NCBI GenBank assembly: GCA_041697335.1
Contig: JBGUGD010000016.1
Location: forward strand, 96,001 to 160,000
Origin: Vampirovibrionaceae bacterium NZW_1234
Lineage (GTDB): Bacteria; Cyanobacteriota; Vampirovibrionia; Vampirovibrionales; JAGQHJ01
Direction of reading: 5' to 3'
Length of the DNA: 64,000 nt
Part shown: piece after piece, positions 50,186-52,607 of the stretch
How the letters are laid out: the number at the start of each line of letters is the position of its first letter
Numbering within the stretch: the stretch's first letter is position 1
Made by a program: the position numbers and the translations under genes
Notes under the pieces: generated by a model
Seen by the model: only the letters and a program-made list of their open reading frames with translations
What the model was told of the DNA's origin: nothing
Databases searched by the model: none

Positions 50186-50479
50186 ATGAAATCCGGGATT
50201 CACCCAGAATACCATGCCGTTGAAGCCACCTGCGTTTGCGGCAACGTTATCTTAACCGGCTCCACCAGCAAAGCCGTCAAAATGGATATTTGCAGCGCCT
50301 GCCACCCGTTCTTTACCGGTACCCAAAAGATTATCGATACCGAGGGTCGGGTTGAGAAATTCAAAAAGCGCTACACCCAATCAGAAAACCTTCGCAAATC
50401 CAATAAAAAAGGCGCGAAAGCCGAGCCTGCGGCGGATGCTCCTGAAACCCCGGCCGCTGAAACAAACACGGAAGCATAG
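50186..50479 (+). CDS. rpmE: 50S ribosomal protein L31 (zinc-binding type)
   Basis: [42 protein letters not shown]. Confidence 0.97.
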
Positions 50480-50584: not shown

Positions 50585-51676
50585 ATGCAACAACTGATTG
50601 ATAAAATGGAAGAGGTCGAAAAGACCTATCACGCCCTGGGTGAACAATTGTCTCAGCCGGAAATCTTGGCTGACTCCAACAAGCTTCGCGACATCTCTAA
50701 ACGTCGCGCCGCTTTGGAAAGCACGATGGAGGTCTTTCAAGACTGGAAACAAACCCAGGCAGACCTCAATGATTCGCGTGAACTGCTTCACGGCGAAACG
50801 GACGGCGAGATGCGAGAGTTTTTGCAAAACGAAATCGTTCGTCTGGAAAGCAAAATTGAAAACCTGGTTGAGAAGATGCGGGTCCTCTTGTTGCCACGAG
50901 ATCCGATGGATGACAAGGATATTATGTTGGAAATTCGCGGCAGTGCCGGTGGGGATGAAGCCAACATCTTTGCCGCCGACTTGATGCGAATGTACATGCG
51001 CTATGCCTCTGATGTAGGTTGGCGAACTGAAATCATCAGCGTCTCAGACAATGAGCTGGGCGGTGTTAGTGAGGTCATCATTGCGATTAAGGGTGACAAC
51101 GTCTATAGTCGTCTTAAATACGAATCCGGCGTTCATCGTGTCCAACGGGTTCCGGTTACCGAATCCCAGGGCCGGGTTCATACCAGCACTGCCACCGTCG
51201 CGGTAATGCCGGAAGTAGAAGATGTATCCATCGAAATTAACCCCAATGACATTGAAATTCAGACCACGCGAAGCGGTGGTGCTGGAGGACAGAATGTTAA
51301 CAAGGTAGAAACTGCCGTTCGCCTCTTCCACAAACCATCCGGAATCCAGGTACACTGTACAGAAGAGCGTAGCCAACTTCAGAACAAAGAACGGGCCATG
51401 CAAATTCTGAAGGCCAAGCTTTATGACCTGGAATTGCAGAAGCAGATGAAAGAAATTACGGACTTACGTCGCTCCCAGGTAGGCACCGGAGACCGGAGTG
51501 AGCGGATCCGCACCTACAATTTTCCCCAAGACCGGGTCACGGATCACCGGATTGGTCAAAACTTTCCGTTAACTCCGATTATCAATGGCGAACTGGCCCC
51601 TGTGTTAGATGCCTTACAACAAGCGGACCAAAAAGCGAAGCTGGAAAAGCTGGCTGAATCGGCCCCTGTGGGCTAG
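50585..51676 (+). CDS. prfA: Peptide chain release factor 1
   Basis: [16 protein letters not shown] (PxT anticodon), [23 protein letters not shown]. Confidence 0.97.
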
Positions 51677-51688
51677 GAGCCCATCTGG

Positions 51689-52456
51689 ATGGGTATTCTA
51701 AAAAGCAGAACCGATATTCAAACCTTTACCCAAGCTGCCCATATTGCTGGCTTGGTGTGTGATGCCTTAATGGACGCCGCCCTGCCCGGGGTCACCACAA
51801 TGGAACTGGAGTCCTTGGCTAACCGCCTTTTACAGCAGCAGCGTTCTTCAGCGCCCTTTAAACTCTTCGAAGGGTTTAACCATGCCTGTTGCATTTCCAT
51901 CAACGACGAGATCGTCAATGGCCTGCCTGCACGCGATCGGGCCTTGCAGGAAGGCGATGTCATCAGTATCGCTGTCGGCAGCTGTTATCGGGATTATTAT
52001 GGAAAGGCAGCCCGAACCCGCTATTTGGGTGCCCATTGCCCTTCTGATATCCAGCAGTTGATAGAGGGCACAGACAGGGCTATTGCCGCCGTGATTGCTG
52101 CCTCTAAAACGACAACCTCCTTAAAACAGATGCTTCAGGCTATTGTCGATACAGCACATGCGTTTAATCTTCAAATTATCGATAGGTCCGCAGGCTGTGG
52201 CATTGGTAAGCAGCTTCATGATGCCCCGGCCACCTACAATCATCCGGATTGGTTAGACGAGGATGTCGAAGTGATCCCGGGAATGGCCTTTACATTAATG
52301 CCCATGATGACACTTGGGCCGACCGGCCAGTGGACCCTTCACGCGGATGGCTGGACCCAAGTGACCCAAGACGGAGCCACGGCTGCTCATATTGCCGACA
52401 GCTGCCTTATGACTGAAACAGGTCTGATTAACCTTAGTCGGATTCCTTCGGCCTAG
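51689..52456 (+). CDS. Methionine aminopeptidase-fold (M24) protein lacking the metal ligands (pseudo-MetAP)
   Basis: PGVTT.EL, CISIND, GIG..LH..P, PGM.FT..PM and DGWT align with Map, but all five ligands are substituted. AGGAG SD. Confidence 0.85.
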   Translation: MGILKSRTDIQTFTQAAHIAGLVCDALMDAALPGVTTMELESLANRLLQQQRSSAPFKLFEGFNHACCISINDEIVNGLPARDRALQEGDVISIAVGSCYRDYYGKAARTRYLGAHCPSDIQQLIEGTDRAIAAVIAASKTTTSLKQMLQAIVDTAHAFNLQIIDRSAGCGIGKQLHDAPATYNHPDWLDEDVEVIPGMAFTLMPMMTLGPTGQWTLHADGWTQVTQDGATAAHIADSCLMTETGLINLSRIPSA

Positions 52457-52607
52457 GAGGGACTAACTCCAGGATCAAGCCTGGTCGAGGGATTTCTTCC
52501 TGAGCTGGTCAGGTCGTGCTTGCATTGGCTATAATAAACGCGTATTCTGGGCTCAGGGACATTGCGAGTATCTTACTCGTGCTGGCTGTAGAGGGAGGCG
52601 AAAAACC

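Follow-up and report, generated by a model that had tools for sequence, protein, structure and literature searches.

The closest described relatives of the protein analysed here are the type I methionine aminopeptidases (MetAPs; M24A), represented by E. coli Map and by the T. maritima enzyme TM1478 (1o0x), in which a single-domain pita-bread fold carries a dinuclear metal centre next to a pocket for the methionine side chain (S1). The same M24 pita-bread fold also supports a metal-free enzyme, creatinase, a dimer with an additional N-terminal domain. In Ebp1, a eukaryotic member, the fold is extended by an insert domain and a basic C-terminal region.

In the accessible part of a 2024 review of inactive metallopeptidase homologues (PMC11266112), Ebp1 is the sole M24 example. 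It is described there as derived from type II MetAPs, as keeping two of the five metal ligands, with a lysine (K320) at one of the lost positions (Table 2 of that review), and as binding rRNA at the ribosomal tunnel exit. In bacteria, a preprint on the mycobacterial enzyme MetAP1c (bioRxiv 10.1101/2024.11.26.625572) proposes, in the text available, a non-catalytic role in translation for a second type I MetAP paralogue; MetAP1c is still a metalloprotease and needs a 40-aa N-terminal tether. For E. coli MetAP, the available text of another preprint (bioRxiv 10.1101/312850) reports a basic ribosome-binding loop and contacts with the ribosome that are mainly with rRNA. In the literature outside subscription journals, we found no description of a bacterial MetAP paralogue that lacks its metals.

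Here, we describe such a paralogue, which we call pMap. It is encoded in a 64,000-nt stretch of contig JBGUGD010000016.1 (the window) from Vampirovibrionaceae bacterium NZW_1234.

The pMap locus and its lost metal site

The initial annotation of this DNA reported a full-length 255-aa open reading frame with its own Shine-Dalgarno sequence 12 nt past prfA, and both the coordinates and the AGGAG motif can be read directly (Table 1). The frame starts with ATG and ends with TAG, and the stop codon of prfA is the TAG at 51674-51676. A scan for promoters and terminators gave no terminator-like site on the plus strand from rpmE to the end of pMap. Together with the short gap, this makes pMap look like the last gene of a local rpmE-prfA-pMap run. 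In the same scan, the 306 nt that separate pMap from the next gene contained a promoter-like site (52506-52535).

Table 1. Positions of the pMap gene, its upstream neighbours and the codons discussed in the text (window numbering; residue equivalents refer to E. coli Map)
Feature	Position	Strand	Remark
rpmE (L31)	50186..50479	+	opens the local rpmE-prfA-pMap run
prfA (RF1)	50585..51676	+	gene upstream of pMap; PCRF and RF-1 domains
Shine-Dalgarno-like AGGAG	51675..51679	+	overlaps the prfA stop codon, 9 nt before the pMap ATG
pMap CDS, including the TAG stop	51689..52456	+	255-aa type I MetAP-fold paralogue without metal ligands
R52-S53-S54-A55-P56 codons	51842..51856	+	R52, S53 and P56 clade-specific and near-invariant, just before S1-pocket F57
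N77 codon AAT	51917..51919	+	H79 position; invariant in clade
A95 codon GCT	51971..51973	+	D97 metal ligand; invariant in clade
K106 codon AAG	52004..52006	+	D108 bridging metal ligand; invariant in clade
C170 codon TGT	52196..52198	+	H171 metal ligand; varies in clade
H177 codon CAT	52217..52219	+	H178; kept in 92% of clade
M204 codon ATG	52298..52300	+	E204 metal ligand; 100% in clade
A236 codon GCC	52394..52396	+	E235 metal ligand; 97% in clade

The product had been described as colinear with type I Map, with alignment to the M24 profile proposed as a check. The Pfam profile PF00557 (Peptidase_M24) matches residues 13-243 end to end (profile positions 3-208 of 208, E 8.5e-28), and the best solved relative, T. 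maritima MetAP 1o0x (E 1.7e-33), aligns over its residues 16-256 with residues 4-247 of pMap, so the proposed colinearity holds. An AF2 model built on 61 homologues has a mean pLDDT of 95.5 and a pTM of 0.92. With this model as the query, Foldseek returned, among the matches listed, solved MetAPs, almost all of them type I, at TMq values of 0.85-0.92. pMap has in common with these enzymes the single-domain pita-bread fold, the S1-pocket residues, the histidine equivalent to H178 and 26 strongly conserved structural positions. Its matches to M24 proteins other than MetAPs are weak (e.g., ectoine hydrolase, 1.6e-06), and at 255 aa it lacks the creatinase N-terminal domain and has no sequence similarity to creatinase beyond the fold.

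The signature difference between pMap and a working Map is the metal site. Residue-by-residue alignments to 1o0x and to E. coli K-12 Map (NC_000913) both bear out the earlier reading that all five ligands are replaced: Asp97 by A95 (SIAVG), Asp108 by K106 (YGKAA), His171 by C170 (AGCGIG), Glu204 by M204 (TLMPM) and Glu235 by A236 (HIADS), where the first residue of each pair follows E. coli numbering. Both alignments likewise agree that His79 has become N77 (IVNGLP) and that His178 is retained as H177, so that one half of the catalytic histidine pair is lost and the other kept. With none of the five ligands in place, pMap is predicted to be unable to hold a dinuclear metal centre and hence not to be a metallo-aminopeptidase. 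Its score on the type I MetAP equivalog TIGR00500 is 158.3 bits, under the cut-off of 171.35. pMap is therefore a type I MetAP (M24A) by fold and descent that lacks the ligands and His79 of the enzyme and falls below the equivalog cut-off.

Origin and range of the pMap clade

Of the 61 close homologues recovered by a protein search (E <= 1.6e-54, 42-64% identity), few carry names, and those that do are Vampirovibrio sp., Vampirovibrio chlorellavorus or 'Cyanobacteria bacterium'. Across the alignment of all 61, N77, A95 and K106 show no variation, while M204, A236 and H177 each occur in at least 90%. A profile search over 1.84 billion representatives shows how sharply this pattern ends: among the best 150 matches, 14 have the signature N-A-K..M-A, all within the first 18 ranks, and the remaining 136 have the catalytic signature H-D-D..E-E, except for one H-I-H..E-E. 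Of 216 proteins collected in total, 72 read N-A-K-x-[H/Q/L]-M-[A/G], 143 read H-D-D-H-[H/Q/W]-E-E, and a single one reads H-I-H-H-H-E-E. This last protein has the equivalents of D97I and D108H with both Glu ligands intact, and no intermediate between the N-A-K..M-A and H-D-D..E-E signatures was found among the 216.

For a FastTree tree, also of 216 rows, we left out five proteins shorter than 230 aa and brought in E. coli Map and four Maps from Vampirovibrionales. The 67 N-A-K rows all group into a single clade (SH-like support 100), and this pMap clade is old and of single origin. No internal branch of the tree is longer than its stem (0.79, against a median of 0.098). The clade is not sister to the order's own Map; the rows nearest to it are three representatives across the long stem. 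The 148 catalytic-type rows have H, D, D, H, E and E at the six replaced positions without exception, and the 67 pMap rows have N, A, K and M in 100% and A236 in 97%. Because each group is fixed for its own set, the replacements cannot be put down to chance. The sole former ligand position that varies within the clade is that of His171, which holds A (26 rows), S (14) or C (13), and also Q, H, F, Y, T, M, W or N. One sub-type has His at this position and Gln in place of H177.

Named members of the clade come from a narrow range of bacteria. We scanned one genome per species for clade-specific peptide patterns and obtained 15 member loci. By their record titles, 11 of these belong to Vampirovibrionales or Vampirovibrio MAGs or isolates, three lie in unclassified cyanobacterial or Melainabacteria MAGs, and one is labelled Coleofasciculaceae, although its contig matches a genome (G028) placed in the window's own order. 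A sixteenth match (L056) was rejected as a member, since it is a normal Map with H79N only. Named members of further representative clusters were again Vampirovibrionales or cyanobacterial MAGs, and a search of the ESM Atlas returned generic M24 clusters only. Among named records, then, pMap is found only in Vampirovibrionales, an order of predatory relatives of cyanobacteria, and in unclassified cyanobacterial MAGs.

We also sampled 251 genomes of the class. At a threshold of E <= 1e-40, which misses a divergent sub-type found in four genomes (G006, G010, G020 and G038), 20 genomes had a match, and all 20 belong to the window's own order. By family, matches were present in two of four genomes plus the window's own (f1), in one of 19 (f2) and in 16 of 25 (f3), and at this threshold none of the 202 genomes from the eight other families of the class had one. 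As far as sampled, the pMap family is restricted to one order. Within that order its function appears dispensable, because the gene was not found in 18 of the 19 sampled f2 genomes and in some f3 genomes.

The genome of the window (3.7 Mb in 41 contigs, 94.75% complete) has three M24 matches including pMap. That a canonical map gene should exist elsewhere in the genome had been anticipated, and it does: a Map that keeps all ligands and scores 299.4 bits on TIGR00500 is encoded at C34:147255-147941, directly after adenylate kinase and SecY in the classical secY-adk-map order. The third match (C34:99920-100426) was not matched by any NCBIfam model. Two peptide deformylase (def) genes and prmC are also present elsewhere in the genome. 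With a canonical Map and two def genes, ordinary N-terminal processing is complete without pMap. The same pairing recurs elsewhere: a Map with the H-D-D-H-H-E-E signature was present in 16 of 16 other pMap genomes checked, so that counting the window's own genome, and a weak-scoring copy in its closest relative (G004), a canonical Map accompanies pMap in 17 of 17.

Selection and the methionine pocket

All 24 pMap reading frames that we compared are uninterrupted, with N77, A95, K106 and M204 in every one and A236 in 23. The least saturated pair of orthologues (L014/L015) gave a Nei-Gojobori (NG86) dN of 0.107, a dS of 0.73 and an omega of 0.146. This is the sole trustworthy omega, as dS is saturated in all other pairs; among the 25 most similar pairs listed, the others for which dS could be computed gave 0.085-0.265. 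The expectation that orthologues would keep the frame and the substitutions under purifying selection was thus borne out, and pMap is not a decaying gene. It is a conserved pseudoenzyme in the general sense of the term, having lost its catalytic residues while its reading frame has been under selection in many lineages beside an active paralogue.

Comparing pMap with the active Map of the same genomes reveals where this selection falls. In the 16 genomes with both genes, median identity is 48% for pMap and 65% for Map, and pMap is the lower of the two in 120 of 120 genome pairs, which are not independent of one another. At 15 active-site and pocket positions, however, mean conservation is nearly the same (0.92 in pMap, 0.95 in Map), whereas across all other columns it is 0.60 in pMap and 0.77 in Map. 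A pocket that stays nearly as fixed as Map's in a protein that changes faster overall points to a site that has been re-tooled and probably still works.

The loss of all five ligands and an evolutionary rate above that of Map would fit an ordinary pseudogene, or a Map that has stayed active by means of a different metal site. We consider either to be highly improbable. The 24 uninterrupted frames with fixed replacements, the omega of 0.146 and a pocket conservation of 0.92 are not what is expected of a pseudogene, and another metal site would have to form with no acidic/His ligand set left and a lysine at the position of the bridging ligand.

Constraint centres on the methionine pocket. We take the residues that line the S1 pocket of E. 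coli MetAP to be C59, Y62, Y65, C70, F177 and W221. Their counterparts in pMap are F57 (100%), F60 (79%, with Y in another 17%), F63 (98%), C68 (100%), L176 (92%) and W222 (100%), so these positions are conserved as in catalytic Maps, or more. We then asked which residues reach at least 90% fixation in the clade while occurring in less than 10% of catalytic Maps. There are solely eight: R52, S53, P56, N77, A95, K106, M204 and A236. Five of them are replaced catalytic positions, and the other three stand just before F57 of the S1 pocket.

These observations lead us to propose that pMap is a metal-free protein that keeps the methionine pocket and binds a methionine-like ligand without cleaving it, and that selection maintains the gene for this use of the pocket. 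We hold this reading tentatively, at a probability of roughly 45%. The pocket is judged most likely to be the part still at work because its positions are fixed to a new set, the methionine site itself is kept, and the other fixed residues adjoin the pocket loop in sequence. The dinuclear metal cage would have been swapped for a fixed set comprising K106 at the position of the bridging Asp together with A95, M204, A236 and N77, and the clade-specific R52, S53 and P56 would complete the new set from just before F57. Where K106, R52 and S53 lie with respect to the pocket is as suggested by alignment to MetAPs.

In the proposed mechanism, pMap would act as a soluble cytosolic monomer. A methionine-like ligand, for example the methionine end of a peptide or of a nascent chain, would sit in the preserved S1 pocket and remain uncleaved, while K106, placed where the metals once sat, would stand in for their charge. 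Such a ligand would most plausibly offer an oxygen or anion to the lysine, as N-blocked methionine or a methionine carboxylate might do. Speculatively, either would be a better fit than a free methionine N-terminus, because no acidic residue is left for the alpha-amino group. A fuller version of this idea, which we put forward as a long shot, would make pMap the first bacterial pseudo-MetAP family, in which an invariant lysine replaces the metal centre and the pocket reads its ligand instead of cleaving it: either formyl- or otherwise N-blocked methionine termini, at the ribosome or as part of N-terminal quality control, or free methionine, with the carboxylate pairing with K106.

Gene neighbourhoods and alternative roles

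The initial annotation joined two ideas, namely that pMap is an intact but catalytically dead protein, and that its place in a translation operon marks it as a ribosome factor. The loss of the ligands and the evidence for selection support and strengthen the first. The second was motivated by synteny with prfA, and judged on that evidence it is not supported. Across 24 genomes, which are not independent since many come from one genus, rpmE-prfA lies upstream of pMap in two only, the window's own and G004 (56% identity), and both belong to one family. Synteny with prfA was therefore rejected as a guide to function. Lying behind prfA reflects a local operon arrangement and not a conserved functional link.

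Other neighbourhoods are more frequent. In five of the 24 genomes, spanning both deep sub-types, purK lies upstream of pMap in the same orientation, overlapping it or a few bases apart, and purE precedes purK in the three of these genomes where purE was found. In nine, mostly of one genus, a heme oxygenase-family gene and a YCII gene lie downstream. The remaining eight have none of the purK, heme oxygenase-YCII or prfA contexts, and their neighbours include genes for PPDK, subtilase, glutaminase and RlmN. In the window's genome, purE-purK is on another contig, without pMap. With two prfA contexts among 24 and such varied neighbours, no conserved partner can be named from the neighbourhood, and the tie to RF1 is a local one; operon partners differ between lineages and form no coherent pathway.

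What remains of the ribosome proposal is that pMap could be a non-catalytic factor similar to Ebp1 and Arx1, located at the tunnel exit or elsewhere on the ribosome, where it would contact or shield nascent N-termini in connection with L31 and RF1. The 12-nt gap and the Shine-Dalgarno-like motif overlapping the prfA stop codon in the window are in keeping with this, as is the rpmE-prfA context of the window and G004, and a retained methionine pocket would suit contact with a nascent chain. There is precedent as well: in the accessible parts of the sources cited above, MetAPs associate with ribosomes and the tunnel exit is capped by Ebp1 (PMC11266112), and a moonlighting role on the 30S subunit is described for a bacterial MetAP1c (bioRxiv 10.1101/2024.11.26.625572). 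Against these points stand the confinement of prfA synteny to two genomes of one family and the presence of rlmN downstream in just one other genome. pMap is also acidic (pI 5.1, with a mean net charge of -8 over 16 orthologues), and it has no N-terminal tether of the MetAP1c type and neither the type II insert nor the basic tail of Ebp1.

The segment equivalent to the basic ribosome-binding loop of E. coli MetAP, +4 in E. coli, averages -2.9 in pMap, which is a weak point against ribosome binding. As a clue this loop is uninformative, because the segment is acidic in the order's own active Map too (-4.3). The ribosome-factor reading is nevertheless weakened, because its main argument, prfA synteny, is gone, and because pMap is acidic and without the extensions that mediate ribosome contacts in MetAP1c, according to the available text on that enzyme (bioRxiv 10.1101/2024.11.26.625572). 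As a whole we regard it as improbable; ribosome binding by pMap would be a minority possibility.

Nor is pMap a member of the Ebp1/Arx1-like family to which it had been likened. Its fold is that of type I, as are its best structural matches, and lacks the type II insert, for which 255 aa would not leave enough space. On TIGR00495 it scores 22.1 bits, where the cut-off is 430, and a basic tail at the C-terminus is missing. pMap and Ebp1 do share the M24 fold, a degenerate metal site and a lysine at one former ligand position, and by behaviour Ebp1 is what pMap most resembles; like Ebp1 and Arx1, pMap possibly uses its pocket for binding instead of catalysis. However, Ebp1 is eukaryotic, type II-derived and keeps two ligands, whereas pMap is bacterial, type I, acidic and keeps none. 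The resemblance is convergent, the ligands having been lost independently and not through shared ancestry. MetAP1c, in turn, resembles pMap in being an additional type I paralogue in bacteria for which a non-catalytic role has been proposed, but differs in retaining both the metal site and the N-terminal extension that pMap lacks.

The metabolic contexts, purK upstream in five genomes and heme oxygenase-YCII downstream in nine, bear on the main rival to a ligand-binding pMap, which is a metal-free neo-enzyme. Under this alternative, the pocket would have been re-tooled to act on a methionine-like or carboxylate small molecule or on an N-blocked peptide, with K106, whose surroundings are no longer acidic, H177, H234, N77, R52 and S53 as the new catalytic set. 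The replaced positions are indeed invariant and not drifting, each of the eight clade-specific fixed residues either takes the place of a former ligand or immediately precedes the pocket loop, and the pocket is almost as conserved as in the active enzyme. The fixed polar residues (Lys, Arg, Ser, Asn, His) would suit binding and a newly formed catalytic site equally well. Yet these neighbourhoods are inconsistent across lineages, no candidate substrate emerged, the former His171 position varies freely, H177 is Gln in one sub-type, and pMap and creatinase, the metal-free enzyme on this fold, have only the fold in common. We rate a neo-enzyme as unlikely, though a serious competitor.

A last alternative places the function on the surface of the protein: as a pseudoenzyme, pMap would regulate a protein partner, such as the active Map, RF1 or another enzyme, or act as a scaffold for it, and the pocket of pMap would be structural only. 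Regulation of an active paralogue is common among pseudoenzymes in the part of the review available (PMC11266112), and an active Map is present in every pMap genome checked. A surface role is nonetheless difficult to reconcile with how the protein evolves, as the columns outside the pocket change faster than those of Map, with lower identity in every genome pair, and no clade-specific conserved position was found outside the pocket. Moreover, no neighbour gene is conserved, and type I MetAPs are monomers. We consider such a partner role to be quite improbable.

pMap also has a practical bearing on how these genomes are read. Public records name pMap proteins 'type I methionyl aminopeptidase', 'methionyl aminopeptidase' or 'M24 family metallopeptidase', and such names overstate the N-terminal processing capacity of these genomes. 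The N77, A95, K106, M204 and A236 signature cleanly separates pMap from true Maps. A design that retains the pocket and is fully metal-less is unusual and easy to test. The family would be an independent bacterial case of a type I pseudo-MetAP, and an unusually clean one, with all ligands gone, their replacements fixed and the pocket kept: a natural experiment on what the MetAP pocket does without metals.

Genes flanking the rpmE-prfA-pMap segment

The gene that follows pMap, the type I methionine aminopeptidase (Map) paralogue lacking the metal ligands, encodes a 393-aa TIGR04552/TIGR04562-family protein that also gives a weak RelA_SpoT nucleotidyltransferase match. We did not find this gene 3′ of pMap in G004, the closest relative of the window genome. 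Its 3′ end is overlapped by a 166-aa ORF, which has no family match, and beyond this lies a 531-aa protein on the opposite strand, with TPR repeats at its C-terminal end and a sub-threshold Methyltransf_28 match. On the other side of the segment, two abutting minus-strand ORFs lie immediately upstream of rpmE and are divergent from it. Farther upstream, the RNase_HII Pfam match is confined to residues 119-326 of a 333-aa protein, whose first 118 aa or so form an N-terminal extension.

Genes around pMap in the window, and Map loci and pMap neighbourhoods in other genomes (G, related genome; L, locus)
Feature	Location	Strand	Match
RNase_HII-family protein, 333 aa	47409-48410	+	Pfam
ORF, 137 aa	49201-49614	-	
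ORF, 168 aa	49615-50121	-	
TIGR04552/TIGR04562-family protein, 393 aa	52763-53944	+	family
ORF, 166 aa	53907-54407	+	none
TPR-repeat protein, 531 aa	54443-56038	-	family
Weaker-scoring Map paralogues, L074-L077	G036:C7, G024:C26, G032:C15, G004:C48		
Map with Asn at position 79	L056:4001-4717		
pMap, then heme-oxygenase-family gene and YCII	L027, L028, L030, L032, L033, L034, L083, L084, L085		
purK, then pMap	L029, L031, L036, L039, L079		

Other Map-like proteins

Some Vampirovibrionales genomes carry an additional, weaker-scoring Map paralogue in which all ligands are present, bringing the number of Map-like genes in these genomes to as many as three. A separate variant, distinct from pMap, is the six-member protein cluster P0102, in which D97 is replaced by I and D108 by H while the remaining ligands are intact (signature H-I-H-H-H-E-E); its metal site may be altered. 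The Map of an unrelated MAG keeps all five metal ligands and has Asn in place of His79 (INAEVVNGIP). In the ESM Atlas, two of the three feature clusters nearest to the window pMap protein are M24/Map-like families with mainly viral members, Uroviricota making up 91% of 162 members in one and 63% of 64 in the other.

pMap neighbourhoods in relatives

In five genomes, representing both deep sub-types of the pMap clade, purK lies 5′ of pMap in the same orientation, with purE upstream of purK in three of them. This purK-pMap order may be the older arrangement. In nine Vampirovibrionales genomes the genes 3′ of pMap, again in the same orientation, encode a heme-oxygenase-family protein (PF01126, E 2e-18) and then a YCII protein. 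The presence of a heme-oxygenase-family gene beside pMap is notable, the Vampirovibrionales being a non-photosynthetic lineage.
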